From an uncultured archaeon (GTDB taxonomy: Archaea; Asgardarchaeota; Heimdallarchaeia; Heimdallarchaeales; Heimdallarchaeaceae), in the NCBI GenBank assembly GCA_964549075.1, contig CAZJUB010000025.1:247-34886 (forward strand): a stretch of 34,640 nt of DNA. Reading direction: 5' to 3'. Under the pieces are notes generated by a model that was not told where the DNA came from, did not search any database, and saw only the letters and a list, made by a program, of their open reading frames with translations. Within the stretch, counting starts at the first letter, position 1. Every line of letters starts with the position of its first letter. The position numbers were made by a program, and so were the translations under genes. Shown piece by piece: positions 1,959 to 27,680 of this stretch.

Positions 1959-2510
1959 TTAAACTCTTTCCCGAATTGCTTTACCTAACATCTCAAAAGC
2001 TTTATCAATATTTTGTCCAGTTTTTGCACTTGTTTCAAGGAGATGATTAGTAATTTTATAGCTGTGTGTTCCGTTATTTAAGATATCGACATATCTTTGT
2101 GCTTCTTTCATGGAAACACTTTTTCTTGAACGCAAATCACTCTTATTTGCTAACATTACAATGGGAACAACCTCTTTTCCACAATATCTATAGAGCTCTC
2201 TAATCCAAATTAAACAGTTTTTAAAAGTCCGTCTATTAGTAATATCGAAAACAACTAGAGCTCCCATACTGCCATTGTAAAAACGACCTCGTACTTCCTT
2301 GAAGATAGGTTGTCCAGCAAGATCCCAAATTTGAAAACGCCAAAGCTCATTATTTGGCATTTTCTTTTTTACAACGCTGAAATCAGCCCCTAGAGTCATT
2401 AAGTGAGATGCCGAAAAACCATGCCCCATATATCTATTTCTAATGGACGTTTTTCCTACTGCTCCATCGCCTAAGAGCGTTATCTTGAAAACAAACTCAG
2501 CTTGACTCAC
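1959..2510 (-). CDS. Rab-like small GTPase (eukaryotic signature protein)
   Basis: G1 GDGAVGKTS, G2/RabF1-like TLGADF, RFQIWDLAGQ, FYNGSMGALVVFDIT, G4 NKSD, G5 ETSAK. GTG start. Confidence 0.93.
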   Translation of the reverse strand: MSQAEFVFKITLLGDGAVGKTSIRNRYMGHGFSASHLMTLGADFSVVKKKMPNNELWRFQIWDLAGQPIFKEVRGRFYNGSMGALVVFDITNRRTFKNCLIWIRELYRYCGKEVVPIVMLANKSDLRSRKSVSMKEAQRYVDILNNGTHSYKITNHLLETSAKTGQNIDKAFEMLGKAIRERV

Positions 2511-2765
2511 AACTAGTAGAGGATGTCTTAACTAAAAAATCTACTTATTACCTTGAAACTATTTCTATGAGAAAACTATATTATGAGAGAGCTTACTCAA
2601 AATTGACTCAGGTTAACTCCAACACTTACGTATTCTTAATTTTTATTATCTTGTAGTAAGGTATTATTTTTACCGACACATCAAAGGATTGGATAAGCAA
2701 TTATTGAATCTCACTACAAAAGAAAGAGAAAGTGTTAATAAGCGATTTAATCAACTATATTCAAT

Positions 2766-3248
2766 ATGGTACTTGACGCATTTAATATTCTCTTTGTGGT
2801 TACAGCTGTTTTAGCAAATATCAGTGTATCTGGCATCTATATAAGTGATAGACACAAATCAATGAAATTCATTCGAATATTCGGAATTATCTTTCTTTCT
2901 ATAGGATTTCCAATTATTACTGTATTGATTGGTTATATTATTACAGGAGGTTATGATTGGTGGATTTATGTCCTTCTTTCGTATATCATTGTTTTCATTA
3001 TAGTACAGCTTATGTTAGATTATATTCTGAAAAGCCAATTCAGGGAAAAAACCGTGCCACATGTTATTTATATTGTATTTTTCTATATGTTTCAAGCAGC
3101 ACTAATCTTAATTGCATTTAATATAAATGACACATGTGGATATGCCGTTTCAATTTCATTTTGGGTTTTATTAGGAGCTCTCATTTATCTGTTAATTGGA
3201 AAACAGATGGATAAAAGACTCAAGAAAGAGAATAAAGAAAGTTCCTGA
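2766..3248 (+). CDS. Hypothetical membrane protein (about 5 TM segments)
   Basis: 160-aa ORF with repeated hydrophobic stretches and a charged tail. BRE/TATA-like GAGAAAGTGTTAATAA lies about 25-40 nt upstream. Confidence 0.75.
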   Translation: MVLDAFNILFVVTAVLANISVSGIYISDRHKSMKFIRIFGIIFLSIGFPIITVLIGYIITGGYDWWIYVLLSYIIVFIIVQLMLDYILKSQFREKTVPHVIYIVFFYMFQAALILIAFNINDTCGYAVSISFWVLLGALIYLLIGKQMDKRLKKENKESS

Positions 3249-3269
3249 TAAAATTACTTTTACTTTTCT

Positions 3270-3311
3270 ATTTTAAGAAACTGTTTTATGGTTAGAATAC
3301 CATGTTAAAAT
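3270..3311 (+). promoter_or_regulatory. Putative BRE/TATA promoter of microprotein 1 (duplicated at 3458-3499)
   Basis: ATTTTAAGAAA starts exactly 42 nt before both ATG 3312 and ATG 3500. TAGAA and TGTT also sit at identical offsets in both copies. Confidence 0.55.
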
Positions 3312-3434
3312 ATGAAAAAGAGCAAAATCAAAAAATTAAAGACAAAACGTAAACTTCCTCCAATAAAAGTCGACAAAGATACTACTGAAAAAGAAATGAG
3401 ACATGCTGAATTTAAAAGGAAGTATTATTATTAA
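3312..3434 (+). CDS. Small Lys-rich protein, 40 aa (MKKSKIKKLKTKRKLPPIKVDKDTTEKEMRHAEFKRKYYY)
   Basis: Hand-translated ATG..TAA ORF below the track cut-off. Shares the motif TExE[ML]RxAExK and the upstream promoter with the next ORF. Confidence 0.65.
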   Translation: MKKSKIKKLKTKRKLPPIKVDKDTTEKEMRHAEFKRKYYY

Positions 3435-3457
3435 TACGCGTTTTAATTGCTTGCAAA

Positions 3458-3499
3458 ATTTTAAGAAAGAATATTAAGTGTAGAAATTATTGTTTTCTT
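3458..3499 (+). promoter_or_regulatory. Putative BRE/TATA promoter of microprotein 2
   Basis: Positional copy of 3270-3311 (ATTTTAAGAAA...TATTAAG..TAGAA...TGTT). Confidence 0.55.
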
Positions 3500-3610
3500 A
3501 TGAAAGAGAAAAAGAGAAAGACAAAGAAGAAGAAAACTCTCTCTGCTAAAGAGATTACAGAACAAGAACTTAGACGAGCGGAAGCAAAAATGGCTCTCCA
3601 AAAGCCTTGA
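3500..3610 (+). CDS. Small Lys-rich protein, 36 aa (MKEKKRKTKKKKTLSAKEITEQELRRAEAKMALQKP)
   Basis: Hand-translated ATG..TGA ORF, a paralog of 3312..3434. Confidence 0.65.
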   Translation: MKEKKRKTKKKKTLSAKEITEQELRRAEAKMALQKP

Positions 3611-3718
3611 AATCAATCTGTGATTTTTATCCATCTATTGCTTTTTTCTATAGAGTAAGTTTATCTTGAAAATTTGTATGAATAAAAGACTAAAATAAGA
3701 TGACCTGTATCTTCATTC

Positions 3719-4081
3719 ATGAAAATTAATGGTTTTATAGTCGGAAAAGTCATTTCACTGATAGCATTTATTACTATGCTAGTAGCTTTACTTTATGGTT
3801 TTATTTTTGCAAATTTCTTTTCTGAAGGAAGTTTGATAATATCTGTACCTTGGGGTATAATCACCTTAATTGACATCTACATTAGCTTTTTGGTATTTTG
3901 TGGTTGGATAATTTATCGAGAAAAAACTATTTATGCGAAGATAATTTGGGTAATTTTTGTTTTAGTTTTAGGAAGTTTTACTATAGCAATTTACTTATTC
4001 ATAGCGTTTCAAACATGTGAAGAAAATTGGCAAAAATTCTGGCATGGTAAAAGGCAAAATTCTGTAATTATTGCTCAATAA
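3719..4081 (+). CDS. DUF1475-family small membrane protein
   Basis: PWGIITLIDIYISF...WIIYRE...W..LVLGS pattern with 3 hydrophobic helices. Confidence 0.75.
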   Translation: MKINGFIVGKVISLIAFITMLVALLYGFIFANFFSEGSLIISVPWGIITLIDIYISFLVFCGWIIYREKTIYAKIIWVIFVLVLGSFTIAIYLFIAFQTCEENWQKFWHGKRQNSVIIAQ

Positions 4082-4093
4082 TTTGTAAATAAA

Positions 4094-4124
4094 AAGAGAA
4101 GGAATCTTATCTCTTCCTTTTCTT
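4094..4124 (+). terminator. Hairpin after the DUF1475 gene, possible terminator
   Basis: AAGAGAAGGAA (4094-4104) pairs with TTCCTTTTCTT (4114-4124), with one G-U pair and a 9-nt loop, 13 nt after the stop. Confidence 0.4.
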
Positions 4125-4174
4125 AACAGTCTTTACAAGAAAGTTTTTAACGTGGCCCTTATTTTCTGTTTTTA

Positions 4175-5536
4175 ATGCCAGAAGTTACTAGTAAATATCC
4201 AATTGTTGCTTTAGGAGCTCTTATCTTTGGTCACTTTCTAAACCATTTCTATGCTTATGTACTAGGAGCATCGTTGTTTATTATAAGAGAGGATATTTTT
4301 CTTTCAAATGCACAAATTGGGTTAGTTGGTACAGCACAAATTGTAGTTTTTGCAATTTGTAGTGTGTTTATTGGAATTTTAGGAGACAGATGGTTAAGAA
4401 GTAGAAATGTATTTGTACCAATAGGAGTACTTCTGATGGGAGGAAGTTTGTTTATTGTAGCATACTCATATAATATAGCAGGTTTAATACTTGCTGCGGT
4501 TCTTACTGGTTTTGGTGCTTCATTTTATCATCCTGTTGCATATGCATCAATAGCTGATCTTTACGAAGAGAAAAAAGGTATAGCTATGGGATTTAATACT
4601 GCATTGGGAATGATAGGCACTTCTATCACACCAATTTTTATTGTTGTTTTTAATAATTGGATAGGATGGAGATATTTTTTCATCATCTTTGGAATCATTG
4701 CTATAGCTCTTGCTCTATTTATGTTCTTTCTATTCCATTACATGATGTCTTACAAACGTACTGAAGAAGAGATGAGTGAACAAACAATAAACAGAAATAA
4801 TGAACGCAAGGACCAATTGAAAAACTGGTTCAAGAAAGAACTGCTTGTTGTTTTAACTTTAATTATCGTTGTATGTTTATTCTTTTCAGTCTTCAGATCA
4901 GGAATATTTAGAATTACTAATCAATTCTTATCAATTATCTTTGTTGATTATTATGGTTTTAATCTCTTTCAAGCAGGATGGATTACAACAGTTATTCTAG
5001 TAATAGGAGGGTTAACTTCCATTGCTGGAGGTATGTTAAGTGACAGAGTGGCAACAACATTAACCATGGTTATATCAGCTGTTGGCTCAGCATTTATGCT
5101 ACTTTTGTTAGTAATTCTAGGGAATGTAATTTCTGGAGTTGGAGCAATTGTATTGTTTTTCATATTTATTGCATTTTTATATTTCTCAGCTGCAGCGAGT
5201 ACAAAATATGTTTCAGAAAATGTTCCACAAAAATCAAGATCACTAGCTTTAGGATTTTTGTTTGCTATACCAAATGCAGTAGCTGGAATCTTCCCATGGA
5301 TATTTGGATTGATTTTAGATGCAAGTAGGTTTACAATGGGAATAACAGAAAATATAGCTATCTATCATGGAATAATTAACATCAATGGAAGTCATATCTG
5401 GGCATTTGCATTTTTGTTATTGTTAGCTATTGCTGCTTCATTTATGGTGTTATACTTGTTTAGAAGAGACTGGAAACTTGGAAGAATTAGTAGAAAGAGC
5501 AAGATTAAAGTGCTAAAATACACAGATGAAATCTAA
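4175..5536 (+). CDS. MFS transporter
   Basis: About 12 TM helices, MFS motif A in both halves (GILGDRW, GMLSDRV), and an FSR-like GASFYHP motif. Confidence 0.9.
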   Translation: MPEVTSKYPIVALGALIFGHFLNHFYAYVLGASLFIIREDIFLSNAQIGLVGTAQIVVFAICSVFIGILGDRWLRSRNVFVPIGVLLMGGSLFIVAYSYNIAGLILAAVLTGFGASFYHPVAYASIADLYEEKKGIAMGFNTALGMIGTSITPIFIVVFNNWIGWRYFFIIFGIIAIALALFMFFLFHYMMSYKRTEEEMSEQTINRNNERKDQLKNWFKKELLVVLTLIIVVCLFFSVFRSGIFRITNQFLSIIFVDYYGFNLFQAGWITTVILVIGGLTSIAGGMLSDRVATTLTMVISAVGSAFMLLLLVILGNVISGVGAIVLFFIFIAFLYFSAAASTKYVSENVPQKSRSLALGFLFAIPNAVAGIFPWIFGLILDASRFTMGITENIAIYHGIININGSHIWAFAFLLLLAIAASFMVLYLFRRDWKLGRISRKSKIKVLKYTDEI

Positions 5537-7918: not shown

Positions 7919-8473
7919 TCATTTTTTCTTTGAAATAATTTTTGTTTCTTTATTAGGATGAGTATCTTTTAACAAGAAAGGTGCCCACTCTTTTTCTACT
8001 TGGTCTATATTTTTTTCCCAGTATTTTAAACGGTTACAAAACCAATCACATTTTTCAGCAATCACTTCTTCAGCATTTTTTTGTATGTTCTCATACACAA
8101 ATGCTGTTAGTGCATACATTACAACACCAATCGCGTGTGTTTTTACATGAACAGTTCCTACAACATGCCCCATTGTTCGTGCAGTTGCTCGAGCTGCTGG
8201 ATTTTCATCTCCTGCTTCAGTCGCAGCATTATGAGCTGCATGTGCTGCTTTCTTTGCAACAGGCATCTTTATCTGTCCAAAAGCCCAGGACTTTGCTGCT
8301 TCTAATGCTTCTCTTGGACGTTTATCATTTGGAAATTTGCTTTCAAAAATTGGGAGAACTCCTTCTGCACATTCTAAAGTCCACATGACCAAAGTTCTGC
8401 GCTTTTGGTTTTCTATCAGTTTTTTTATTGGTTGCAGAAAAGTACTATCTCTATTAACTAGAAGTTTTCTCAT
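7919..8473 (-). CDS. Imm5-like putative immunity protein
   Basis: WxxECAExVLxxFE..PxDxRPRxALEAAxxW..G..Ala-rich..AAR..GH..T.HV.TH pattern typical of this family. Confidence 0.75.
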   Translation of the reverse strand: MRKLLVNRDSTFLQPIKKLIENQKRRTLVMWTLECAEGVLPIFESKFPNDKRPREALEAAKSWAFGQIKMPVAKKAAHAAHNAATEAGDENPAARATARTMGHVVGTVHVKTHAIGVVMYALTAFVYENIQKNAEEVIAEKCDWFCNRLKYWEKNIDQVEKEWAPFLLKDTHPNKETKIISKKK

Positions 8474-12210: not shown

Positions 12211-13002
12211 TCATAATCTTATGAATTGTCTACTTCCGCAATTCTTACAACCTTTTATAGAACAATTAGAACAAGTAAGGACTCCACATTTGGAGCATTT
12301 TGAAGTAGCTACATTATCACAGGTAGGACATTTTTTGGTTTGTATTCTTGTTTTTAATTTAGTATAACCAAAAACAGATAAAGCGATTAATCCAAGAACA
12401 CCAACTACTTCCGCAATAGTTATCAGAATATTTGATATATCTGATCCTCCGGAATTAATGGGACCTGGTCCTTCTTCTAAGAGATATTCTATTGCACTAG
12501 TCATTGCAGGTTTTGTTTCTTCATTTGAAAAACCACTATCTGTCCACTGAATAGACCCATCCTGATCTATTATGTAGAATGTGGGAACACTTCCAGTACC
12601 ATATGCACTATTTATTAGTCCTCCTTGATCTAAACTCACTATCCAATCCATGTTTTCTTCTTGGCGGAAAGTTGATACAACTTCTTGTGTCTCGCTTTGA
12701 TCAGCATCAACAGAAATTATACGTAGTTGACTTTGAGAGTATTGAGAGTTAAGTTGTATGAGAAAGGGGATAGAAATCTGACATGGTGAGCACCAAGTTG
12801 CAAACAAATCTAGTATAACTACAGTTCCGCGAAAATCAGAAAGTGAGTAAGTAGAACCAGAATCAACATCTCTAACTGAAAAATCAGTAGCTGCTTGTTT
12901 AATATCAAAAGCATAGGTTCCTGAGATAGTATCTGTTTTAACAAACGAAATCATTGGAATAGCTAGTAATATAACAACTAGCAATGACTTTCTTAGTAAC
13001 AT
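12211..13002 (-). CDS. TlpA-like thiol-disulfide oxidoreductase fused via a TM helix to a C-terminal 8-Cys zinc finger
   Basis: Signal peptide, LDLFATWCSPC, cis-Pro VPTFYIID, TM helix, then CPTC-x7-CSKC-x4-CSNC-x4-CKNC. Confidence 0.88.
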   Translation of the reverse strand: MLLRKSLLVVILLAIPMISFVKTDTISGTYAFDIKQAATDFSVRDVDSGSTYSLSDFRGTVVILDLFATWCSPCQISIPFLIQLNSQYSQSQLRIISVDADQSETQEVVSTFRQEENMDWIVSLDQGGLINSAYGTGSVPTFYIIDQDGSIQWTDSGFSNEETKPAMTSAIEYLLEEGPGPINSGGSDISNILITIAEVVGVLGLIALSVFGYTKLKTRIQTKKCPTCDNVATSKCSKCGVLTCSNCSIKGCKNCGSRQFIRL

Positions 13003-13122
13003 TATACAAAAAATGTCAAAGTATGATATTTGAATTTTATCGAATTACAAAAACTGACAACTGTTTAAAATTTTTCGTTGGAAATAAGTAGTCTTTTTAT
13101 GTTAAACTAAATATGAATATAT

Positions 13123-14115
13123 ATGGAAATTTTTCCAATTGCTTGTGAATCTTTAGGAACAAGATCCTTCGCTCATTTTGTTAAAACAGAAAATATTAAC
13201 ATCTTAATAGATCCTTCTGTTTCTCTTGCACCCGTAAGATTCAAACTACTTCCTCATCCTTTAGAAGTAGCAGTAGCATGGAAATCTCGACAAACTTTAT
13301 TGAAGTTAATTAAACACTCAGATATCATAATTCAAACCCATTATCATGGAGATCATTTTACTTTAGGAGAAAGAAGAATTTACGAATTTAGCAATAGAAA
13401 GGTTTTCAATCAAACCTATACCTCAGAAGCTCATATACTTGCTAAAGATCCTGAAAACAATTTAAATTATAATCAACAAAAACGTGCAAAATGGTTATGG
13501 AATAAACAAGGTTTGCATATCGATATAGCAGATGGTATGGATTATAAATTTGAACAAACAAAGATTAAATTTTCTCAAGCTGTCCCTCATGGTTATGATA
13601 CTCAAAGAGGATCAGTAGTCGAAACCTACATCGAAGATTCAGAAAGCAGTTACCTCTATACTTCAGATGTAAGTGGTCCAGCTTCCAAAAATGCCTTGTC
13701 TTTTATGTTGGAAAGTAATCCTGATGTTGTTGTTCTAGATGGTCCATCAAGTTACCATCCAAACGTATCTAGAGAAGAAATTAATCTAGCTTATGAAATT
13801 TTATCTACTTTAGCTGAACAATTTCCTAAATTATACATAGATCATCATTTTCTAAGAACTTTAGATTGGAAAGAAATTTTGAAAGAAAGAATAGGTAAGG
13901 TTTTACCAGCTTTTAGTGAGCTGAGACAACAAGAACCTATGTTACTCGAAGCAAGAAGAAAAGAACTTTATCAACAGATTAGTTTTCCTAAAGATTTTCA
14001 TTCAAAATTTCAATATGAAGGATATAGTACAGAATATTTTGAGCAATTATTAAAACAACAAAACTTAGAATCTTATTGGAATAATATTCTTGATTTCGCA
14101 AATAATGAAAATTAA
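13123..14115 (+). CDS. UPF0282-family metallo-beta-lactamase-fold hydrolase
   Basis: ESLGTRS, LIDPSVSLAP.RF.L.PHP, THYHGDH, VPHG, TSDVSGP and DHHFLR motifs. Confidence 0.85.
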   Translation: MEIFPIACESLGTRSFAHFVKTENINILIDPSVSLAPVRFKLLPHPLEVAVAWKSRQTLLKLIKHSDIIIQTHYHGDHFTLGERRIYEFSNRKVFNQTYTSEAHILAKDPENNLNYNQQKRAKWLWNKQGLHIDIADGMDYKFEQTKIKFSQAVPHGYDTQRGSVVETYIEDSESSYLYTSDVSGPASKNALSFMLESNPDVVVLDGPSSYHPNVSREEINLAYEILSTLAEQFPKLYIDHHFLRTLDWKEILKERIGKVLPAFSELRQQEPMLLEARRKELYQQISFPKDFHSKFQYEGYSTEYFEQLLKQQNLESYWNNILDFANNEN

Positions 14116-14702
14116 TTGAGTTTAGATTTTCTCCTTTTTACTAAGATAATGCTAACAACTAATACAGAAGTTAAAGCATAAAGAAAATTCAAATTCATAG
14201 AATTAGTTCCGTTTTGAACCTTTCCAGCATCAAACATGATTTCGTTATTGATTGGTTCTATGGTCGGAAGTCCCATAAAATTTTCTAAGTTAGGAACATA
14301 TGCAATAGTAGCATTATCATAATAAATTTGTATTCGAAAACCTATTTGCATTCCTACAGGGAAATCTACTGTATAGTTTCCTTCATATCTTACAGATGTA
14401 GGACATCTAATTAAAGTGGGAATTTCATGCATTGAAATATAGACATAATCACACAAACATATCATGTCTTCAGTTATTTTGAAAAGGTATAACTTAGCAA
14501 CTGAAACATTTGAGTTACAATCAAACTGTACCTTAACTGACATATTTTGACCATAAACTATAGGATTTGGTGAAAGCTCTATACTAGCTATCGCATATGG
14601 ATATGAGCTCACTTTATCTATCGTTTGAGTGTTTATGAATGTCATTGAAAGAAATAGAATTAATAAGATAATGTTTAAATTTTTATTCATTGTAAATGAC
14701 AT
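14112..14702 (-). CDS. Hypothetical Cys-containing surface protein with C-terminal anchor (paralog of the next gene)
   Basis: Signal peptide, beta-rich domain, C-terminal TM plus KRRKSK. Shares PxPxxxGxNMxV, YEG, GFxIxIxY, VP, IEP and FDAGxVQ with 14745..15299. Confidence 0.8.
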   Translation of the reverse strand: MSFTMNKNLNIILLILFLSMTFINTQTIDKVSSYPYAIASIELSPNPIVYGQNMSVKVQFDCNSNVSVAKLYLFKITEDMICLCDYVYISMHEIPTLIRCPTSVRYEGNYTVDFPVGMQIGFRIQIYYDNATIAYVPNLENFMGLPTIEPINNEIMFDAGKVQNGTNSMNLNFLYALTSVLVVSIILVKRRKSKLN

Positions 14703-14744
14703 TTATCTTAATAAAATAAAAATCTTTTAGAAAAATTAAGAGAA

Positions 14745-15299
14745 TTATTTCTTAAGACTTTTCTTTTTTTTAGCTACAACAGATATGGATCCTATTGCTA
14801 AGATAGTACCTACAATTCCACAACATATTGTTTCATCTGTTGCATCTTGAACAGTGCCTGCATCGAAATAATAGAAACCAGTTAAAGGCTCTATGATAGC
14901 CATATCTTGAAATTCAGGTGTTTCTGGTACTATTGTTGCTGGAGTATCGTTAATATAATTTATTTTAATATGAAAACCAACTGTTGTCCCTGCATCATAA
15001 TTTATTAAGAATATTCCTTCATAAATTCCTTGACTTGTCTCTATCATATCGATAGGAGATTCACAGAGGAAATCAGGAGTAATAGTACAGATTAAAAGAT
15101 CCACTGATGAAATATTGGTTGTATCATAAAAAATTGCAGTAACTGTCATATTTTTTCCACTAATAAGTGGAGAAGGATTATATTCAATTGATAAGATACC
15201 ATAGTCACTATTTGCGTAAACTTGGGAATTTACTAAAAAAGCTGTTACACATAAAACAATAAGAGGAATAGGCAATGATAATTTTGTTTTCATTTTCAT
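14745..15299 (-). CDS. Hypothetical Cys-containing surface protein with C-terminal anchor
   Basis: The ORF track starts at 15308, but ATG 15299 follows an AGGTGG RBS at the end of the ccdA fusion. Signal peptide, C-x7-C, and TICCG-TM-KKKK tail. Confidence 0.8.
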   Translation of the reverse strand: MKMKTKLSLPIPLIVLCVTAFLVNSQVYANSDYGILSIEYNPSPLISGKNMTVTAIFYDTTNISSVDLLICTITPDFLCESPIDMIETSQGIYEGIFLINYDAGTTVGFHIKINYINDTPATIVPETPEFQDMAIIEPLTGFYYFDAGTVQDATDETICCGIVGTILAIGSISVVAKKKKSLKK

Positions 15300-15300
15300 T

Positions 15301-16587
15301 TTAACCACCTAAGAAAAATTCCAATAATAAATATATCCCTACACCAACTAAAACTACTCCGCTGATTTTCTTTATAATATTTGTACCCGCTTTAAGTTTC
15401 TGCAATATTGCATCTCTAGATACACTTATCAAAAGAGTTGCTCCTACCATTAAGAGTATTATAGTTATTGCAAAAGCAAGATAAGCAAAAACCATTTTCA
15501 AAACTGTTTCTTGTGCTGAGACTTGAAGACTAAAAGCAATAAAGATTGGAGCATTACAACCTAAAGAAGCTAAACCGTATCCTAATCCATATAGAAAAGT
15601 ACTAGAGAATTTCGATAGATTAGAATCTTTTTCTTTGTTTTCTGACGATATTTGCTTTTTACGTATCCAACTAAGAACTTTAGATAATGAAAACTCTAAT
15701 CTTGTGAACATTATAATTCCAAAAATTATGAAGATTCCCCCAATAATTGGAAGAGCATATACTAAATATGGAAGTATAGAGTTTCCAACTGCACTTACTG
15801 CTACACCTATAACTAAATAACTAATGAGAATACCAATTCCACTGCTTAAACCGAGTAAAGGATACAACCACATTTTACGTCTATTTCTCGTTGATTCTTT
15901 TCCTTCTGTATCTTCCTCTTCTTTTTTCACATCCATTCCGAGGATATGTGCAACATAACTTGGTAATAACGGAAATGAACAAGGTGAGAAGAACGAAGTG
16001 ATAGCAACAACAATCGCAAAGCCAATAACAACTCCTTCGTAACTAGTTATTCCAATACTAACATTTTCACATTCAATAGTCTCAAGTAAAGCTGTTTTTA
16101 AGTCATTTTTTGGTATAATCCCCATATCAGAATAGGTTATATTTCCTTCAGCATTTATGATAATAAAAGTAGGAGTTTGCGAAACGCCATATTCAATTTG
16201 CATCCCATCAGGTGCAATCACAGAGATCCAAGTCATATTTTCAACTAACGCATGATTCTCTAAATCTGTAAGATTATCATCAATAACTATATCAACCGAA
16301 ATGAGCTCAAATTTTCCTACCAATTCAGCATCATAATAGAGTTCATTGAGAATAGGGTTCATCGCTTTACAAGGAACGCACGAGATACTCATGAAATCTA
16401 ATAAAACTGTTTTTGGCTCTAAATCAGATAAAGAAAAGACTGTACCATTTGTGCTTTGTAATACATAGTCAGGAGCAACAGTTAACTCTGTTCCAAATGA
16501 TTGAATGATGAAGTATACTCCAACAGCTCCACCAATAATCAATATAGATGCGATTAGTATAGCAAGTTGACTCTTCTTCACACGCAT
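15301..16587 (-). CDS. ccdA: Redoxin (CVPC) plus CcdA/DsbD transmembrane domain fusion
   Basis: N-terminal anchor, LDFMSISCVPC, TPTF, then 6 TM helices with FFSPCSFPLLPSY and SLGCNAPIF (the two CcdA cysteines). Track start is TTG 16593. Confidence 0.9.
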   Translation of the reverse strand: MRVKKSQLAILIASILIIGGAVGVYFIIQSFGTELTVAPDYVLQSTNGTVFSLSDLEPKTVLLDFMSISCVPCKAMNPILNELYYDAELVGKFELISVDIVIDDNLTDLENHALVENMTWISVIAPDGMQIEYGVSQTPTFIIINAEGNITYSDMGIIPKNDLKTALLETIECENVSIGITSYEGVVIGFAIVVAITSFFSPCSFPLLPSYVAHILGMDVKKEEEDTEGKESTRNRRKMWLYPLLGLSSGIGILISYLVIGVAVSAVGNSILPYLVYALPIIGGIFIIFGIIMFTRLEFSLSKVLSWIRKKQISSENKEKDSNLSKFSSTFLYGLGYGLASLGCNAPIFIAFSLQVSAQETVLKMVFAYLAFAITIILLMVGATLLISVSRDAILQKLKAGTNIIKKISGVVLVGVGIYLLLEFFLGG

Positions 16588-16649
16588 GTGCAAATATAGT
16601 CATTTAAAAATCATTGGTTTTGAAAAAAAAAGTAGAAAAAAAGAGAGTG

Positions 16650-17969
16650 TTATCTTCTCTTTCGAATAAGAATAATAGTAATCAAACCCACTAAAATTGA
16701 AAGAGGTAAGAAAAGAGTAAAATTACTTTCTCCTGGAGTTTCTGTCTCTGAAGGTGTTGTAGTTGGAGGTTCTGCTACAGCTAAATCTTCAGTTACTTCA
16801 TTGCCTACTGCATCGCGAACAACTATATGCGCTGTGAGTTCCCAAGGCATTACTTGTGAGTACAGTAATTCTGCTGAAGCTACCATATGAGTAACGTTGT
16901 AATTTTCAAAAGTTGCAGCTTTCTTGATAGTTGATCCTACCATGAACCAGACATCTTTCTTCAAAAATAAGAGATCTTCCTCTAAAGTTGCAAATACGGT
17001 AACATTGTATCTAATGTCAGAAACTTCATGCCATTCGACAGCTGTGTTGCTAATTGTTGGTGGACCAGAATCGATGTATTGAGTAACTGGAAGATAGTTC
17101 ACAGCTGTCAAATTAGAATGATTCCAATAATCTTTGACATAAATTTGCAGTTCTAGATTAGCTAGTGGATAAAGGAATGATGGATCAAGTGTTATCGCTT
17201 GGTTGAAGGCATAATAACTCCCCATATCTTCATAATTAAGATGAAAAATCACTGCCTCACCATTTACAATCCTTAAATCAAGTTGTTTGATGTTTCTATC
17301 TTCATAAACCCATCCTGAAACATAGAATCTAGGATTGAATATAGATAATTCTGTTGTATTATAGAAAGTAAGATCTGTAAAATATGGAGTTACTGTGTCG
17401 TCTGGGAGTAGAGAACCTAATAAAGTTCTTACAGTAGCTTCATCAAATCCTATTTCTGAATAGACTACATGTCCTGTTTGATTGAGGATATACATTGTTG
17501 GAATAAATCCAGATCCATAATTTAGATGATCCCAAATAAGAGAATTATTTTCATCATACATAGGATCAGAACCTACAATCCAATCCATACCATAATTATC
17601 TCGGAATCCTGAGATTAGAGCTTCAGATTCAGAAGGGTCTACATCTATTGATATTAGTTGAAACATATTTTCAGGATACAATAAATATAATTCCCGTATT
17701 GTAGGAAGGGCAGCAATACAAGGACCACACCAAGTAGCGAAGAAATCAAGCATCACGATTTTTCCTTGAAAATCAGACAATGAATACTCAATATGACTAT
17801 CGACATCAGTTATGTTAAAATCAGGAGCTAAAGTGTAATCATCAACCATATTTATCTTGTTCTCTTTACCATTTGAAGGCACAGTGGCGTTAATAGTTCC
17901 TAAGTTGTTTATTATGAATACAGGTAAAACCATAATCACAATTAAAACGAATACTTTTTTGTTCTTCAT
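16650..17969 (-). CDS. Surface-anchored TlpA-like oxidoreductase with additional beta-rich domains
   Basis: Signal peptide, LDFFATWCGPC, IPTMYIL, Ig-like segments, Thr/Pro/Glu linker, TM and RKRR. Track start is TTG 17978. Confidence 0.88.
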   Translation of the reverse strand: MKNKKVFVLIVIMVLPVFIINNLGTINATVPSNGKENKINMVDDYTLAPDFNITDVDSHIEYSLSDFQGKIVMLDFFATWCGPCIAALPTIRELYLLYPENMFQLISIDVDPSESEALISGFRDNYGMDWIVGSDPMYDENNSLIWDHLNYGSGFIPTMYILNQTGHVVYSEIGFDEATVRTLLGSLLPDDTVTPYFTDLTFYNTTELSIFNPRFYVSGWVYEDRNIKQLDLRIVNGEAVIFHLNYEDMGSYYAFNQAITLDPSFLYPLANLELQIYVKDYWNHSNLTAVNYLPVTQYIDSGPPTISNTAVEWHEVSDIRYNVTVFATLEEDLLFLKKDVWFMVGSTIKKAATFENYNVTHMVASAELLYSQVMPWELTAHIVVRDAVGNEVTEDLAVAEPPTTTPSETETPGESNFTLFLPLSILVGLITIILIRKRR

Positions 17970-18026
17970 AAATTTCAAAAAAAACAGTTATATTTCAATT
18001 TTACCTTTAACAAAAAAATAATGTAG

Positions 18027-19469: not shown

Positions 19470-20675
19470 TTGGTTCAGGAAGGTTATTGGGGCATTTACA
19501 AAAACATTGAAAATATGCCTTTAGAAAGATTTGATCCATTCAGAACAATAGTGAATGAGTTCGACACAAAAGTTGGTCATATGACACAGTTTTCTCCAAT
19601 TAGAGGGAAACGACCTTTTGAATATGATGAAAGTTTTGAAGAAGTTTTTTACGGGACACCAAAAACCGACTCCTTCTGTAAAGTTGTTAAAGGTGAGTTA
19701 CCAGCAGTTGTTCTTGCAAAAGACAAAGAAATTGTTGAGTATTCGTTGAGTGTCCACCCTATTCAGGAAAACTTCGAACAATATACTTCTATTTCAATAG
19801 TTAATCTATTTACTCCGATGGCTAGAGTGTTATATGATAATGTTAAACAGATAGATTCTGTGAAAGATAAGAGTGTGGGGATAGGAATTGTGCATCTTCC
19901 AACCAAACATTATGATAAATTAGCTGAAATACCTATTGAAGAAGTAGCCAAGCTTTTTGAAACTGCTCAATTAGCTCAAAAGAATAGTATCAAAGATCTA
20001 AAAGAGAAATACCAGACAGATAAACTAACAATAATGTATTTCTTCAACATAGGAGAAGAAGCAGGAGCCAGTATCGGACATCTTCACTGTCAAACATACA
20101 TTTATGCAAATGATATCGGTCATGGTTGGACATCTTTAGGTTTCCTAAGTGTTCCAGGCTTTCATAAGAAGTTTAAGAATGATGAAAATTATTGTCTAGC
20201 TTGTGAAGTCGCAAATGATGGGGATAATGTGGTTGATCCAATTGATCAGCAGCTTCTTGTTGATCAACGAAAAATCTTTGAAAATAAGGAATGGGTAGTT
20301 CTAACAGCTTTCTCTCCCGAAAGAGATGGACAGCTGAGATTGATACCTAAAAGACATGTTTCTCAATTTATTGAATTAGACTCTGACCAAATTGCTGGAT
20401 TAGGAGAAGCACTTGTGGTTGCAAACAAAGCTTTAGATCACTTTGTCAGTATGAGTAGTCCTCACATGAACTTATTACAAGATAGAAATGTTCTCTTCAG
20501 ACAAGATAATGTAGGTTATAATTCTGGTATGCATCTCATGATAGATATCATTCCAATTCAAAGAATCGGTGGTGCAGAAATCATGGAAACTTATAGAATT
20601 GCTACCATCTTTCCTGAACACGTAGCTGATATTATGAGAAAAAGCTTAAAAGATAGAGACATAAGCCAACAGTAG
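19470..20675 (+). CDS. GalT-like (HIT superfamily) sugar-1-phosphate nucleotidylyltransferase / NDP-sugar phosphorylase
   Basis: SPIRGKRP, FNIGEEAGASIGHLHCQ (HxHxQ), CLAC, and a second HIT-like half (LIPKRH...PEHVA). TTG start after a GGTGA RBS. Confidence 0.8.
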   Translation: MVQEGYWGIYKNIENMPLERFDPFRTIVNEFDTKVGHMTQFSPIRGKRPFEYDESFEEVFYGTPKTDSFCKVVKGELPAVVLAKDKEIVEYSLSVHPIQENFEQYTSISIVNLFTPMARVLYDNVKQIDSVKDKSVGIGIVHLPTKHYDKLAEIPIEEVAKLFETAQLAQKNSIKDLKEKYQTDKLTIMYFFNIGEEAGASIGHLHCQTYIYANDIGHGWTSLGFLSVPGFHKKFKNDENYCLACEVANDGDNVVDPIDQQLLVDQRKIFENKEWVVLTAFSPERDGQLRLIPKRHVSQFIELDSDQIAGLGEALVVANKALDHFVSMSSPHMNLLQDRNVLFRQDNVGYNSGMHLMIDIIPIQRIGGAEIMETYRIATIFPEHVADIMRKSLKDRDISQQ

Positions 20676-20685
20676 AGGTTTATTT

Positions 20686-21855
20686 ATGGCAGAAGAAGAG
20701 AAGGTTCCTGTTTCCTTTATACTCCACGCATATCAACCAATAACACAAAGGATCGAGATTTTGGAGAGGATAGTTAACAATTGCTATATTCCTTTCTTTG
20801 AAAATCTATCAAAGAAACCAAATACTAAAATAACATTAAATATTGCTGGTTGTCTTCTTGAAACTTTAGCTACAAAATATCCATATGTTTTGCAGCTTCT
20901 AGAAAAATGTATTTCAGCAGGACAAATAGAGATTATGGGATCAGCTTTCTATCATCCACTACTTCCATTAATTTCAATAGAGAATCAGAAATACCAAATA
21001 GGTAAACAAAAGGAAATTATTCAAAATATTTTAGGACTGAAATCGTCAGTTTTCTTCCCTCCAGAATTAGCTGTATCAGAAGAACTTTTACCGCAAATTG
21101 AAGAAAAAGGATATACGACTATAATTGTCCCAGAAAATATCAATTCTGTACCTTATGGTAGTAGTTTTATTTTAGAAAATGGGAAAACAGTTCAATTGAT
21201 TAAGAGAGATAAAGATGCAAGTAACCATATATCCTTTAACCATTATAATCGCAATATTTCTAGTTGTGTTTTAGATTTACAAACTAAGTATAAGCAAACT
21301 CAAAAACCTATCATAATGGCAATGGATCTTGAAACTTTTGGAGAACATATGGCAGAGTATTATTATTTCTTCTTTAATCTCACAGATAGGATTGAAACAA
21401 TGACACTATCTAACTGCCTAGATAGATATCCAATTGATACAGTGAGTGATGTTTTCATCCCTTCTTCGTGGTCAACCACAAAAGAGGATTTAGATAAATT
21501 TATTCCATATCCATTATGGGACCATCCATTTAATTCTATACATCAACTACAACACATACATCTCCGTCTTCTTCACCAGATTAAGAGGTATTTACTTGAT
21601 GGAGATTGGACAGATGAATATCATGCAGCATACTACAGTTGTCAATTCTGGTGGGCTTCTAGAGATTGGTTTTCTGCAGATCTGATACATACAGGATTAA
21701 AATACCAAAGAAATGTTCTTGCAAAAATGATTGAAAGCCTTTCTAAAGACTCCAAACAAATAATTTTAAATCTCTCTAATGACATTATTCAAAAAATAGT
21801 AGACATAGTAGCACAATTAGGGGATAAAAATGAACATAGTGTTTATTTCAGCTGA
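20686..21855 (+). CDS. Glycoside hydrolase family 57 (amylase/amylopullulanase-like)
   Basis: GH57 conserved regions HAYQP, GSAFYHPLLP, FFPPE (nucleophile), MDLETFGEH (acid/base) and SCQFWW. GAGG RBS. Confidence 0.88.
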   Translation: MAEEEKVPVSFILHAYQPITQRIEILERIVNNCYIPFFENLSKKPNTKITLNIAGCLLETLATKYPYVLQLLEKCISAGQIEIMGSAFYHPLLPLISIENQKYQIGKQKEIIQNILGLKSSVFFPPELAVSEELLPQIEEKGYTTIIVPENINSVPYGSSFILENGKTVQLIKRDKDASNHISFNHYNRNISSCVLDLQTKYKQTQKPIIMAMDLETFGEHMAEYYYFFFNLTDRIETMTLSNCLDRYPIDTVSDVFIPSSWSTTKEDLDKFIPYPLWDHPFNSIHQLQHIHLRLLHQIKRYLLDGDWTDEYHAAYYSCQFWWASRDWFSADLIHTGLKYQRNVLAKMIESLSKDSKQIILNLSNDIIQKIVDIVAQLGDKNEHSVYFS

Positions 21856-23299
21856 AGTAGATCCTTTCTCCAAAACAGGAGGATTGGGAGATGTTTCTTC
21901 TGCTTTTCCAAAAGCAATGAAGGAGTTAGGACATGAGATAATAGTGTTTACACCATTATACAAGAAAATAGATTTAGAAGAACACAATATTAAGCTAGTT
22001 AAGAAAGATTTAACAGCTCCAATTGGTGACAAATTAGAAGTTTTCGAGTTATACGAATCAATCCTTCCAGAAAGTCAGGTACCGATTTATTTCATTAAAA
22101 ACGAATATCTTTATAGAGAAGGAATTTATGTGGATGAAAAAACAGGTGAAGATTACGCTGATAGTCCTATCAGATTCTACAGTTTTTCACAATCAGTTTT
22201 CATTTCTCTTGAATTATTAGATTTTACACCAGATATAATTCATGCTAATGATTGGCATACTGGATTAATTCCATTTTTACTCAAGACTGAATATGTTAAA
22301 AAACCTCAATTTAGTAAGACCAAGACAGTTTTTACAATCCATAATATTGGTTATCAAGGAATTTATCCACTTGAAAAATTAGCAGAAGCTAAAATACCAG
22401 AAATTTACTATTCCGAAGATTGTTTGGGATTCTTCAACCAAATAAACTTCATGAAAGCAGCAATAGTATACACAGATATTCTAACAACTGTAAGCTCAAA
22501 ATATGCTGAGGAAATTCAAACCAAAGAATATGGAGATGGACTAGAAAAATTCATTGAAGCACGTAAAGAAGATTTATATGGTATTGTTCATGGTATTGAC
22601 CTCACTGTATGGAATCCAAAAATTGATCCTCTTATAGTTCACAATTATGATTCAAACAAATTTAAAGGAAAATCAGAAAATAAAAAGTATTTACAAGATA
22701 AGTTAAACATCAATGTTTCAGATAAGCCGCTAATTGGAGTAATTTCTAGAATCGCTACACAGAAAGGATTAGATCTTATATTAGAGAAATTTGATGACAT
22801 TATGGACCTTAAAGTTCAATTTGTGCTCCTTGGTACAGGTGATTCAAAATTAGAAAAGAAAATAAAATCAAAAGAAAAGAAGTATGAAGAAAATTGTTCA
22901 ATTAATATTGAATTTGACAATAGATTAGCTCATCAGATAGAAGCAGGAGCAGATTTCTTCTTAATGCCAAGTATTTACGAACCATGTGGATTAAACCAGA
23001 TGTACTCTATGGTTTATGGAACTATCCCAATTGTGCGAAATACTGGTGGATTATCAGATACTGTAGTAGATTTTGTAGATGATCCTGATAAAGGAAATGG
23101 ATTTGTTTTCGAAAATGCAGATGCTGAAGAACTATTCGAAGAGATAAAATTAGCAGTTAGTTTATATTATAACGATAATGCAAGTTTTGTGAAATTACAA
23201 AAACGAGATATGAATCAAGATTTTTCATGGAATCATGCTGCTAAGAATTGGCAAAAAGTCTACGAAAAAGCACTAATGAAGAGATGGAAAAAGAAATAA
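21830..23299 (+). CDS. glgA: Glycogen synthase (GT5)
   Basis: KTGGLGDV, HANDWHTG, FTIHNIGYQG, RIATQKG, MPSIYEPCGLNQ and TGGLSDTV motifs. Confidence 0.95.
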   Translation: MNIVFISAEVDPFSKTGGLGDVSSAFPKAMKELGHEIIVFTPLYKKIDLEEHNIKLVKKDLTAPIGDKLEVFELYESILPESQVPIYFIKNEYLYREGIYVDEKTGEDYADSPIRFYSFSQSVFISLELLDFTPDIIHANDWHTGLIPFLLKTEYVKKPQFSKTKTVFTIHNIGYQGIYPLEKLAEAKIPEIYYSEDCLGFFNQINFMKAAIVYTDILTTVSSKYAEEIQTKEYGDGLEKFIEARKEDLYGIVHGIDLTVWNPKIDPLIVHNYDSNKFKGKSENKKYLQDKLNINVSDKPLIGVISRIATQKGLDLILEKFDDIMDLKVQFVLLGTGDSKLEKKIKSKEKKYEENCSINIEFDNRLAHQIEAGADFFLMPSIYEPCGLNQMYSMVYGTIPIVRNTGGLSDTVVDFVDDPDKGNGFVFENADAEELFEEIKLAVSLYYNDNASFVKLQKRDMNQDFSWNHAAKNWQKVYEKALMKRWKKK

Positions 23300-23426
23300 T
23301 TAGTTTTTATGTAAAATTGATGATATAAAGATTAGTTGTTTCTATAATTTTCTCAAACATCAGAAAAATATTTATTTTAGGTTGCAATTAATACTCTAGT
23401 ATAAAAAACCTAAAGTGTGATTTTTA

Positions 23427-25718
23427 GTGAAAGAGAGAAAAACTATTTATGTCATTATAATTATTTTAAGCAGTTCATTATTTTTTAATATAAACTCCAG
23501 AGAATTGGTGGAAGTAAAAGCAGATACGATGGGAGTACAGTTAGAATGGGCATTCCCAACAGGTGGAGAAGTAAAAAGCTCTCCAGCAGTAGCAGATTTA
23601 GATTCAGATGGTATTATGGAAATAATAGTAGGTTCAAATGACAATAAAGTGTATTGCTTGAATTCAACAGGTGGTTTAAAATGGGCATTTCAAACATGGG
23701 AAGATAGATTGAAACATTCTTCACCATGTATAGCAGATATAGATGGAGATAATGAATTTGAGGTTCTAATAGGAACCTATAACGTCAGTACAGATTATGG
23801 AACTCTCTATTGTATTAACGCTAATGGGACATTGAATTGGATGAATGTAGGTTATAGGATATATTCTACTCCAGCTGTAGCGGATTTAGATAACGATGGG
23901 ACACTGGAGATATTGGTAGGGAGAAGTAGAGCAACTAGTGGAGGATGTTTACAATGTATTGACCATTTTGGTGAAGAAAAATGGTATTACAATTTACCAG
24001 GGAATTCCTTTGGTTCTCCTTGTATTGCAGATTTTGATAATAACGGAATATATGAAATTATTATAAGCTCAGCAGTAGATGGTATTGATTGCTTAAATTG
24101 TTTAGATATTAATGGCTCGCTAATTAGGAACTTTTTCCCCATTCCTGCAGGTACTTATGTGTATTCAACTCCAACAATAGCAGATTTAGATGGAAATGGG
24201 GATACTGAAGTAATGGTTAATATTTTGTCTGAAGTGAATGGAGCTTCTGGATTGTGGATATTTTCTTCTTTAGGTGTACCAAAATATTATAGTGAGTATT
24301 TTTATTTGAATTTATCTTCACCTGTAGTTGCTGATATAGACGGGGATGATTCTTTAGAAATTGTTTCATGTAGTTTGAATCAGTATGATCACCATGGTGA
24401 TATTCTGTTTTTTAATAACCAAGCTCAAAAAGAGCATCAATATGCTACTGGAGCTAATATAGAAGCTTCTCCTGCATTATCAGATCTAAATAATGACGGT
24501 AAATTAGAGATAATTGTAGGTTCAACTAACAATAATCTCTATTGTGTAAATCATACAGGTAATTTAGAATGGATGTTCAGCACCAATGGTAGTATTGAGT
24601 CTTCAGCATGTATTGTTGACGTAAATAATGATGGGAAAGTTGAAGTTCTTTTTGGTTCAGATGACACTAATCTATATTGTTTATCTATAGTAAGTTCAAT
24701 TTACTCAGGAACTCAAAGATGGTGGGGATATTTAGGAAATGCCGCAAATACTGGCAATATTGATAGTGATGGAGATTATTTATGTGATTACATGGAGAAT
24801 TTTTATGATTCAAACAGATATATTACAGATACAGATTCAGATGGACTGGAAGATGGATTAGAAGTCTATCTCTATATAACTTATCCAAATAGAATAGACT
24901 CAGATAATGATACGTTAGAAGATGGGGATGAAGTACTTATTTATGGTACGGAACCAAGGAAAAAAGATTCAGAAGATGATGGTTGTCCGGATGGATGGGA
25001 AATTCAATATTCTTTGAATCCGTTGGCAAATGATTCTAACTTAGATCCAGATGGGGATGATCTTACTAATCTAAACGAATTCATTCTTGGATGTAATCCT
25101 AGAGATGAGGATTCTGATGATGATAGTCTTTTGGATGGAGAAGAAGTGAATATATACTCTACAGATCCACTAGATGATGATTCGGACTCTGATGGTCTTT
25201 TAGATGGAGAAGAAGTAATTGTTTTTCACAGCAATCCAAATCAAAATGATACAGATTTAGACGGTATAGAGGATTGGGATGAAGTTTATCTTTACTATAC
25301 TAATATAACTAACAGTGATACAGACAACGACGGTTTAATCGATGGAGACGAAGTCTTCAAATATTCTAGCTCCCCTTTAAATCACGATACTGACAATGAT
25401 GGTTTATCAGATAGAGAGGAAGTTATTTTTTATAACACACTTCCCTATGACAACGATACAGATAAAGATGGATTACTGGATGGATGGGAAATAGTTTTCT
25501 ATTTAACAGATCCCTTGGATGAAGATTCAGACAACGATGGATTTTCAGATGGTGTAGAAGTTCTTGCAGGTTCAGATCCTCTTGATTCTGAAGATATACC
25601 TACAGAACCTACAGAAACCGAAGAAACATTTTTCTCTAGTTACTTATTAGCTATATTATCACTTTGTGTTTACATAATGCTCTATCAAAAACGAAGAAAA
25701 TTAAAAAACGATTTATGA
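23427..25718 (+). CDS. Surface protein: FG-GAP-like beta-propeller, Ca-binding DxDxDG (TSP3-like) repeat stalk and C-terminal anchor
   Basis: Signal peptide, 8 SSPxxADxDxDG-type repeats, about 12 D[ST]DxDG[LI]xDxxE repeats, TM and KRRK. Confidence 0.88.
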   Translation: MKERKTIYVIIIILSSSLFFNINSRELVEVKADTMGVQLEWAFPTGGEVKSSPAVADLDSDGIMEIIVGSNDNKVYCLNSTGGLKWAFQTWEDRLKHSSPCIADIDGDNEFEVLIGTYNVSTDYGTLYCINANGTLNWMNVGYRIYSTPAVADLDNDGTLEILVGRSRATSGGCLQCIDHFGEEKWYYNLPGNSFGSPCIADFDNNGIYEIIISSAVDGIDCLNCLDINGSLIRNFFPIPAGTYVYSTPTIADLDGNGDTEVMVNILSEVNGASGLWIFSSLGVPKYYSEYFYLNLSSPVVADIDGDDSLEIVSCSLNQYDHHGDILFFNNQAQKEHQYATGANIEASPALSDLNNDGKLEIIVGSTNNNLYCVNHTGNLEWMFSTNGSIESSACIVDVNNDGKVEVLFGSDDTNLYCLSIVSSIYSGTQRWWGYLGNAANTGNIDSDGDYLCDYMENFYDSNRYITDTDSDGLEDGLEVYLYITYPNRIDSDNDTLEDGDEVLIYGTEPRKKDSEDDGCPDGWEIQYSLNPLANDSNLDPDGDDLTNLNEFILGCNPRDEDSDDDSLLDGEEVNIYSTDPLDDDSDSDGLLDGEEVIVFHSNPNQNDTDLDGIEDWDEVYLYYTNITNSDTDNDGLIDGDEVFKYSSSPLNHDTDNDGLSDREEVIFYNTLPYDNDTDKDGLLDGWEIVFYLTDPLDEDSDNDGFSDGVEVLAGSDPLDSEDIPTEPTETEETFFSSYLLAILSLCVYIMLYQKRRKLKNDL

Positions 25719-25758
25719 GCTAGTATTAATGAAAAGATGGAAGAAAAAAAACTATCTT

Positions 25759-27480: not shown

Positions 27481-27533
27481 TATTATCTGCTTATATTACC
27501 TATTCTTTAATGTTTTTAAAAATAGACAAAATA

Positions 27534-27680
27534 TCAAAGAAGGTTATGTGGATAGTTTGAACGAATATTTATACTTAATCCACAACTTAAACAGAACTTC
27601 TCGTTTTTAGGAATTGTTCTTCCACATTTCAAGCATACATTGACATTTTCTTCGTTCTCTTTGCGTTCTTTCTTCTTCAA
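27534..27680 (-). CDS. Small zinc-ribbon protein, 48 aa (MKKKERKENEENVNVCLKCGRTIPKNEKFCLSCGLSINIRSNYPHNLL)
   Basis: Hand-translated. The TTG start overlaps the upstream TGA (TTGA), with a GGTGA RBS and two CxxCG motifs (CLKCG-x9-CLSCG). Confidence 0.75.
   Translation of the reverse strand: MKKKERKENEENVNVCLKCGRTIPKNEKFCLSCGLSINIRSNYPHNLL

Follow-up and report, generated by a model that had tools for sequence, protein, structure and literature searches.

A 34,640-nucleotide (nt) stretch of DNA from an uncultured Heimdallarchaeaceae archaeon, referred to here as the window, carries two small open reading frames (ORFs) in what looks like an intergenic gap. They probably represent two small transcription units on the same strand that arose by tandem duplication, with ORF2 as the parent and ORF1 as a lineage-specific copy. 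The window is part of contig C25 of a 3.23-Mb assembly (genome G000; 217 contigs, 32% G+C, 89.7% complete). The gap, of 470 nt, extends from the stop of a membrane ORF of 160 amino acids (aa) at 2766-3248 to the start of a 120-aa DUF1475-like membrane ORF at 3719-4081. ORF1 (3312..3434, + strand), a diverged duplicate present in this genome only, would encode a 40-aa peptide of pI 10.2, MKKSKIKKLKTKRKLPPIKVDKDTTEKEMRHAEFKRKYYY, which includes the stretch TTEKEMRHAEFK. ORF2 (3500..3610, + strand) encodes a 36-aa peptide of pI 10.4, MKEKKRKTKKKKTLSAKEITEQELRRAEAKMALQKP, which includes the stretch EITEQELRRAEAK. The original prediction, made from the sequence alone, had placed ORFs of 40 and 36 aa in this gap with starts 188 base pairs (bp) apart, and we confirmed both the coordinates and the sequences.

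That a unit of about 188 bp, promoter and ORF together, was duplicated in tandem is very likely. Unit 1 (3270..3457, + strand) comprises the promoter region, ORF1 and a short 3' flank, and unit 2 (3458..3645, + strand) the promoter region, ORF2 and its 3' flank. The local DNA alignment of the two 188-nt units (alignment A1), which runs from an upstream 11-mer, ATTTTAAGAAA, through the peptide motif, scores 26, against 13.3 +/- 2.1 for dinucleotide shuffles of the units, none of which reached 26 in 2000 trials. As had been noticed originally, the 11-mer lies at -42..-32 of both ORFs (3270..3280 and 3458..3468, + strand), and TAGAA and TGTT recur at identical offsets from both ATGs, the former at -19..-15 (3293-3297 and 3481-3485) and the latter at -9..-6 (3303-3306 and 3491-3494). 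In register, 31 of the 62 nt upstream of the two ORFs are identical; background pairs drawn from the upstream regions of 1,875 long ORFs have a mean of 19.0 +/- 3.8 (P(>=31) = 0.00175; P of an exact run of at least 11 nt = 0.0002). The 3.23-Mb genome contains 36 copies of the 11-mer, both strands counted, and an ATG is found at +42 in two of them only, those of ORF1 and ORF2, which rules it out as a regulon motif. At the peptide level, the pattern TE.E[MLIV]R.[AVS]E.[KR] matches two of the 82,244 six-frame segments of the genome, namely ORF1 and ORF2, and BLASTP aligns the two with 8 of 14 residues identical (E = 2e-4, as a single comparison). This likeness between the peptides is weak taken alone, and is convincing only together with the adjacency of the ORFs and the match of their promoters. 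The hidden, diverged tandem duplication of a promoter and a small ORF that had been proposed is thus backed by the unit alignment, the upstream identity and the motif count.

Comparison with related genomes indicates that ORF2 is very probably a real, selected gene, because differences accumulate in excess at third codon positions, dN/dS is low, a single frame is commonly open and orthologues occupy the same locus. Orthologues were found at the equivalent locus in three other genomes of the genus, G020, G001 and G006 (E 2e-10 to 3e-8 in a single-protein search), with 81%, 81% and 72% identity to ORF2, respectively (alignment A2). Over the last 24 codons, the six pairwise comparisons give 10-13 differences at third positions, against 1-5 at each of positions 1 and 2. 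Values of pS are near saturation (0.63-0.81) and those of pN are 0.08-0.17, giving a pN/pS of about 0.1-0.2; dN/dS is 0.03-0.09 in the three of six pairs for which dS is defined. One serine codon has switched between TCT and AGT from one genome to another. The ORF2 frame is the only one open in all four genomes, free of the stops in homologous loci that the original prediction had named among the findings that would speak against it; an antisense ORF of 57 aa (3461-3634) was ruled out, as it is interrupted by stops in G001 and G006.

The ORF2 family is narrowly distributed, in a few related Heimdall-type archaea that belong to a subclade of one genus. A four-sequence profile detected it in 4 of the 25 genomes of the genus (E <= 1e-19), a six-sequence profile recovered the identical four among 83 genomes of the class, and no match at a convincing score was obtained in the 58 other genomes of the class, so that the profile search proposed at the outset yields no Asgard-wide family. 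ORF2 itself scores 71-72 bits against the family profiles. A HMMER search of 1,835,955,588 representative proteins added P0002 and P0003 as the sole further members at E <= 0.001, and one ORF2 locus was found in metagenome contigs (L016), arranged as in G020. The exact ORF2 sequence is not in a 15-billion-protein collection and is present in the ESM Atlas. The remaining matches are weak: G040 (E 0.03) and G027 (E 0.39) in the single-protein search, and G003 (two matches) and G017 with profiles (E 0.1-0.3). In viral contigs, none of 343 pattern matches was confirmed as an ORF2 relative. Profile matches in G041 and G042 (E 0.004 per genome, 83 genomes searched) were judged to be due to chance and lie in the juxtamembrane part of a 331-aa membrane ORF. 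This sister-genus membrane protein (L043, 679-1674, in G042, with an orthologue in G041) carries the juxtamembrane sequence KRRKRTDRPYEYSAKEIQDQ, weakly like the ORF2 profile. ORF2 is the conserved parent copy, and with its relatives forms an orphan microprotein family of 36-38 aa.

The polarity of the duplication can be read from the same genomes. Among the five upstream regions compared, that of ORF1 and that of ORF2 in G000 are closest to each other (the 31/62 given above), all other pairs having 17-27 of 62 positions in common, and the ORF1 motif block stands at much the same distance from each of the four ORF2 genes (27-32/42). The nearest relative, G020, lacks ORF1. Since the upstream region is nearest to that of the ORF2 of this very genome while the motif block is equidistant from all four, the data fit a duplication in the G000 lineage, after which ORF1 would have changed freely and ORF2 under constraint.

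The upstream regions of both ORFs are compatible with separate leaderless transcription units, as far as composition can tell in a genome of 68% A+T. Upstream of the 1,875 long ORFs, the frequency of A rises to 0.44-0.46 at -35..-33 and that of T to 0.40-0.44 at -29..-27 from the ATG, within a general profile that is A-rich at -35..-32, enriched in T and then A at -30..-23, and enriched in G at -12..-7. The start of AGAAA peaks at offset -37 (28 occurrences, against a mean of 10.8 per position, in 1,858 long ORFs), and TTTTA, TTTAA and TTTAT peak at -30..-28. The centre of the TATA box lies near -26/-27 of the transcription start, and such a layout is expected for promoters of leaderless mRNAs with a B recognition element (BRE) and a TATA box. 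In both ORFs, AGAAA, the 3' part of the 11-mer, stands at -36..-32 as a BRE-like A-rich element, followed by a putative TATA-like element, TTTTAT at -28..-23 of ORF1 (3284..3289, + strand) and ATATTAAG at -29..-22 of ORF2 (3471..3478, + strand). A TATA-like box at about -33..-22 is found in all five small ORFs (ORF1, ORF2 and the three orthologues), and a GGTG-like (Shine-Dalgarno-like) run before the ATG in none of them, in agreement with the leaderless-type layout that had been proposed. A scan for bacterial-type promoters and terminators was uninformative, the host being an archaeon. Downstream, a T4 run 7 nt past the ORF1 stop (3441..3444, + strand) may be a weak oligo-T termination signal, and T5 and T6 runs past the ORF2 stop (3624-3628 and 3642-3647, + strand) are candidate archaeal oligo-T terminators; these T5 and T6 runs are not kept in the three orthologues.

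Of the original claim that the two are real, separately transcribed and leaderless genes, two parts are supported, that ORF2 is a real gene and that the promoter-like elements are placed as in leaderless units; the part concerning ORF1 does not stand in the same way, as will be seen below. The joint conservation of peptide and promoter on which the claim had been built holds just between the two copies within one genome: the 11-mer is not kept upstream of the three ORF2 orthologues, and ORF1 has no orthologue.

The product of ORF2, with a net charge of about +9, is predicted to consist of a disordered poly-Lys tail and a single helix ending in ALQKP. The helix has the consensus (E)LSAKEITEQE[LI]RR[AV]EA[KR]xA[LF]QKP, followed directly by the stop and preceded by the Lys-rich tail, and the C-terminal half, with its invariant Q-K-P and stop, is the best conserved part of the family. 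An AlphaFold2 model from the six-sequence alignment leaves residues 1-15 without secondary structure and places residues 16-34 in a helix (mean pLDDT 78.4; 61, 83, 91 and 78 by blocks of ten residues). A prediction of a homodimer from two copies (alignment A4) gave scores of 0.07 and 0.06, against a mark of 0.42, and speaks neither for nor against dimerisation. ORF2 has no hydrophobic segment. It had no match in Pfam or NCBIfam at E <= 1, and the best family match of the six A4 members at E <= 10 had an E-value of 0.096. The best Pfam match of ORF1, DUF3914, scores 14.6 bits against a cut-off of 25, and PHROGs and PADLOC returned no match for four proteins. A resemblance to the TMA7-like peptides, which are Lys-rich and associated with translation, was not borne out: TMA7 gave no row in the Pfam scans at E <= 1 or E <= 10, in which the HMMER filters may drop very weak matches. 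The best PDB profile match of ORF2, the N-terminus of GpsB/DivIVA, resembles it over 14 residues (kkelsAkEIteqEl against KVKLSAKEILEKEF); unlike it, this domain is of about 60 residues, too long for ORF2, and the match is not significant (E = 0.23), so that ORF2 was not assigned to it. The best feature score in the ESM Atlas, 0.76, is below a level that shuffled sequences also reach and is uninformative. The suggestion of an undescribed microprotein family is borne out for ORF2 by the lack of a match in Pfam, NCBIfam, PHROGs, PADLOC and PDB.

We propose that a BRE/TATA-type promoter of its own would drive each unit, giving a leaderless or near-leaderless mRNA. ORF1 would have been copied in the lineage of this genome, with start, frame, basic tail and some of the helix motif retained, together with a promoter of similar build. 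The microprotein would act in trans: its polycationic tail would keep it on a polyanion, be it RNA or the ribosome, DNA or the surface of an acidic membrane, and specificity would come from the conserved helix. Small and very basic ribosome-associated proteins include the eL41-type peptides and lineage-specific archaeal ribosomal proteins; like the eL41-type peptides, ORF1 and ORF2 are of 36-40 aa, have a pI above 10, are Lys/Arg-rich and are predicted to be helical. Unlike the ribosomal families, they have no Pfam or NCBIfam match, and ORF2 is found in a minority of the genus with one inferred loss.

Several observations weigh against this proposal, first of all on the side of mechanism and expression. 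Polyanion binding is a tentative idea that we would rather doubt than hold, drawn from charge and predicted shape only, and a gene present in only four of the 25 genomes of the genus, and inferred to have been lost once, cannot be a core ribosomal or chromatin component. TATA-like strings are common at 68% A+T, and the promoter reading is one of position-specific composition. A second TATA-like string, within the 11-mer (-41..-35), would give a leader of about 10-15 nt. The 14 sequencing runs listed with this DNA include no RNA run.

Other observations concern ORF1, and to them attaches the strongest alternative, namely that the ORF1 duplicate is in decay, as a young pseudogene or as a relic that is not translated, and that only ORF2 makes a functional peptide. 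No ORF1 orthologue was found in 41 relatives, and among the 22-70-aa proteins of a 5.8-billion set ORF1 matched only itself, on five contigs; weak matches in G008 and G005 (E 0.4-0.6) were dropped, as the motif is absent from them on reading. Of the 15 invariant columns of alignment A4, six are retained in ORF1 (M1, K2, K7, E23, R25 and E28). Beyond the basic tail, where 12 positions are invariant in the family, three remain (E23, R25 and E28) and nine are lost, and ORF1 ends in KYYY in place of ALQKP. Against a profile built from the ORF2 orthologues only, its score is 8.2 bits, which ranks it 13th of 82,244 segments (E = 11 genome-wide). By these measures (bit score, columns kept, no ALQKP), it falls outside the definition of the ORF2 family and is a paralogue by descent, not a conforming member. 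In the comparison of substitution rates between the copies, which the original prediction had put forward as a check, pN/pS in the 14-codon motif block is 0.52 (3.7 synonymous and 8.3 non-synonymous differences), against about 0.1-0.2 among the ORF2 orthologues, where dN/dS is as low as reported above. By a rough estimate, the identity of this block (30/42) is compatible with neutral drift of ORF1 away from a constrained ORF2, and there is an ascertainment bias, as ORF1 was noticed through being open. ORF1 is under relaxed or changed constraint, because most of the family-invariant residues are lost.

It is nevertheless slightly less than an even bet that ORF1 is decaying. Start, frame and 40 open codons are retained, though in 21 of the 40 a single substitution would create a stop; the net length difference of 15 nt before the motif is a multiple of three and preserves the frame, and the promoter-like elements stand at offsets identical to those of ORF2. 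In a neutral simulation of the copy (substitutions only, no indels; start kept and frame stop-free), at least 30 codons remained open in 14, 10, 8 and 5% of runs at 20, 25, 30 and 35% divergence, and all 36 codons in 12, 8, 6 and 4%; this survival of 4-14%, in which indels are uncounted, may be taken as weak evidence that ORF1 is still kept open. Whether it still encodes a working peptide is, in our estimate, evenly balanced. Logan contigs of four DNA runs (X6, X7, X8 and X12) contributed low-depth fragments only over 2600-4200, with no variant letters, indels or joints, and hence no population variation from which to judge ORF1. The 160-aa gene upstream of ORF1 has homologues in G023, G002 and G022; no ORF1-like ORF lies behind those of G023 and G002, which stand in other contexts, and the locus of G022 is cut off. 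The reading of two duplicated units, with ORF2 as the selected parent, is the one that we retain.

The locus in relatives bears on the role and the history of ORF2. In G020, G001 and G006, ORF2 lies between a divergent Ras-family GTPase gene and a same-strand gene for a transporter of the major facilitator superfamily (MFS), with about 50-85 nt separating the ORF2 stop from the MFS ATG. We compared 17 orthologous GTPase loci besides that of the window (L018-L034). ORF2 is present in three; in eight (G011, G009, G013, G004, G003, G012, G002 and G017) the MFS gene comes straight after the GTPase gene and no small ORF intervenes; four have other GTPase neighbours (G015, G022, G005 and G008) and two could not be resolved (G010 and G016). 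The stretch between conserved anchors in the two genes measures 110-123 nt in five aligned loci without ORF2. When eight spacers are aligned (three carriers and these five), the carriers show an inserted cassette of about 200 nt, which separates two promoter-like elements that are themselves conserved: ...AAAAAAGATACTTATTAC, at the GTPase end, and AAGAAAGTTTTTAAC, which precedes the MFS gene at about -38..-24.

This arrangement raises the possibility, which we find unlikely, that ORF2, as a small protein, regulates a membrane protein encoded next to it, the MFS transporter being the candidate. ORF2 would then resemble the bacterial small-protein regulators of transporters AcrZ, MntS, SgrT and KdpF, with which it shares the position of a microgene adjoining a transporter gene. 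It stands directly upstream of the MFS gene and on the same strand in three genomes, and in the window it is flanked by the two small membrane-protein ORFs, with the MFS gene at 4175-5536. However, unlike AcrZ, MntS, SgrT and KdpF, it has no transmembrane segment and no homology to them, it is known from a single lineage, and eight genomes of the genus have the GTPase-MFS pair, and hence the transporter, alone. The adjacency in four close genomes amounts to a single evolutionary event and provides no independent support.

It is still less probable, and in our view distinctly improbable, that ORF2 is a cis-acting leader peptide (upstream ORF) of the downstream transporter gene, at whose QKP-stop the ribosome would stall at termination. 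Pro-stop ends occur in known stalling peptides, and the best conserved part of ORF2 is precisely the C-terminal half with its invariant Q-K-P and stop; the position upstream of the MFS gene in three of four genomes, and the absence of a conserved oligo-T run after ORF2, would agree with such a role. It is disfavoured because the promoter-like element of the MFS gene, AAGAAAGTTTTTAAC, sits downstream of ORF2 in every carrier, between it and the MFS ATG, and is identical to that of the genomes that lack ORF2. Moreover, the spacer from ORF2 to this element varies in length and sequence, another gene (3719-4081) and the T5 and T6 runs intervene in the window, and no RNA-structure signal was found.

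That neither ORF is a gene, the duplicated element being a non-coding one (a promoter or a small RNA) with chance frames in A-rich DNA, is very improbable, and for ORF2 close to refuted on comparative grounds: chance ORFs of 40-57 aa are indeed common in this A+T-rich stretch, but the codon-position pattern and dN/dS of ORF2 over four genomes, and the single frame open in all of them, speak against it, as do the absence of a fold signal in the two units on both strands (z = +0.7, +0.7, -0.8 and +0.7 against shuffles) and of any Rfam match in 3270-3650, the three matches listed elsewhere in 2500-4500 (E 2-7) being below gathering scores and not above chance.

A single-gene tree of the GTPase (16 rows, 184 columns, midpoint root; G010 dropped and G016 left out) groups three ORF2 carriers as (G001,(G000,G020)) with a support of 93/91, and puts the remaining carrier, G006, next to the ORF2-less G011/G009/G013 as their sister, with a support of 100/99. 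One gain and one loss of ORF2 is the simplest reading of this one short gene tree. One might speculate that, in a recent ancestor of a few species of Heimdallarchaeia, ORF2 arose de novo, or was acquired from a source not yet sampled, within the spacer of about 110 nt between divergent promoters; we regard this as unlikely. ORF2 would then have come quickly under strong purifying selection and would later have been duplicated with its promoter in one species. If true, this would be a rare datable case of microprotein gene birth, duplication and divergence in the archaeal lineage closest to eukaryotes.

Other features of the locus in the window may be recorded here. Two tandem Ras-family small GTPase genes lie at 1345-2510 on the - strand (Pfam Ras, E 2.8e-24 and 2.3e-39). 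At E <= 1e-60, the member of the pair closer to ORF1 and ORF2 is present in 20 of the 25 genus genomes; the MFS gene comes next after it at 11 of the 17 other loci, and in the window as well, past the inserted ORFs. The two small multi-pass membrane ORFs (both + strand), of which the 160-aa one belongs to no family and the 120-aa one matches DUF1475 weakly (26.8 bits), occur at the GTPase-MFS locus in this genome alone among the loci compared; the copy of the 160-aa gene in G023 has an internal TAA. Directly past the GTPase-side element, the stretch at 2540-2590, GAAACTATTTC...GAGAAAACTATATT, is like the promoter stretch on the MFS side in genomes that lack ORF2, AAAACTATTTCGTTAAGAGAAACTTTTTAAC in the case of G011, and may be what is left of the original spacer after later insertions had split it. 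The ORF1-ORF2 pair is bracketed by a 15-nt inverted repeat (3202-3216 and 3625-3639, 93% complementary) and by a 23-nt direct repeat (3207-3229 and 3678-3700, 83%), both of them borderline with respect to chance in A+T-rich DNA by a rough estimate.

Farther along the window, a 184-aa ORF (7919-8473, - strand) adjoining an H+-pyrophosphatase gene matches an Imm5-like immunity protein (PF21805, E 2e-41), a family tied to polymorphic-toxin systems and found here on an archaeal chromosome. Three successive ORFs of thioredoxin/redoxin fold, one of them fused to a DsbD-type transmembrane domain, occupy 12211-17978 (- strand). A glycogen/alpha-glucan cluster at 19470-29068 includes two GH57 enzymes (one with a branching-enzyme C-terminal domain), a starch-synthase-type glycosyltransferase and a phosphoglucomutase, as well as a 763-aa FG-GAP/beta-propeller protein with a TSP3 repeat.

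Ribosome profiling and mass spectrometry have yielded catalogues of archaeal small proteins of up to 70 aa in Haloferax volcanii and Methanosarcina mazei (PMC10117724, PMC12704099, PMC7261190). ORF2 is, like the genes of these small proteins, a tiny, mostly unannotated archaeal gene, with a putative promoter of its own and a possibly leaderless mRNA; unlike them, its family has no match in Pfam, NCBIfam or the 1.84 billion proteins outside a genus-level family. From the zinc-finger micro-proteins ORF2 differs in lacking Cys motifs. Prokaryotic lineage-restricted (ORFan) genes have been treated elsewhere (PMC12315717, PMC11293555), and they are, like ORF2, short, taxonomically restricted, unplaced in origin and situated in a former intergenic spacer; ORF2 differs in being under clear purifying selection across species and in having a datable tandem duplicate. 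These papers on small archaeal proteins and ORFans provide general context only, and the claim of novelty rests on the database searches.

Orphan small genes are common and no long-standing problem is touched here, so that the value of the finding is modest unless a function or a de novo origin is demonstrated. Microproteins are systematically missed in metagenome-assembled archaeal genomes, and in this case comparative evidence alone establishes ORF2 as a selected gene, in all probability, with a clear pattern of presence and absence at one syntenic spacer and a paralogue of known polarity. The locus is a tractable case for asking by what routes very short genes originate and diversify in Asgard archaea, and which role a peptide of 36 residues, a poly-Lys tail plus a predicted helix, may play.

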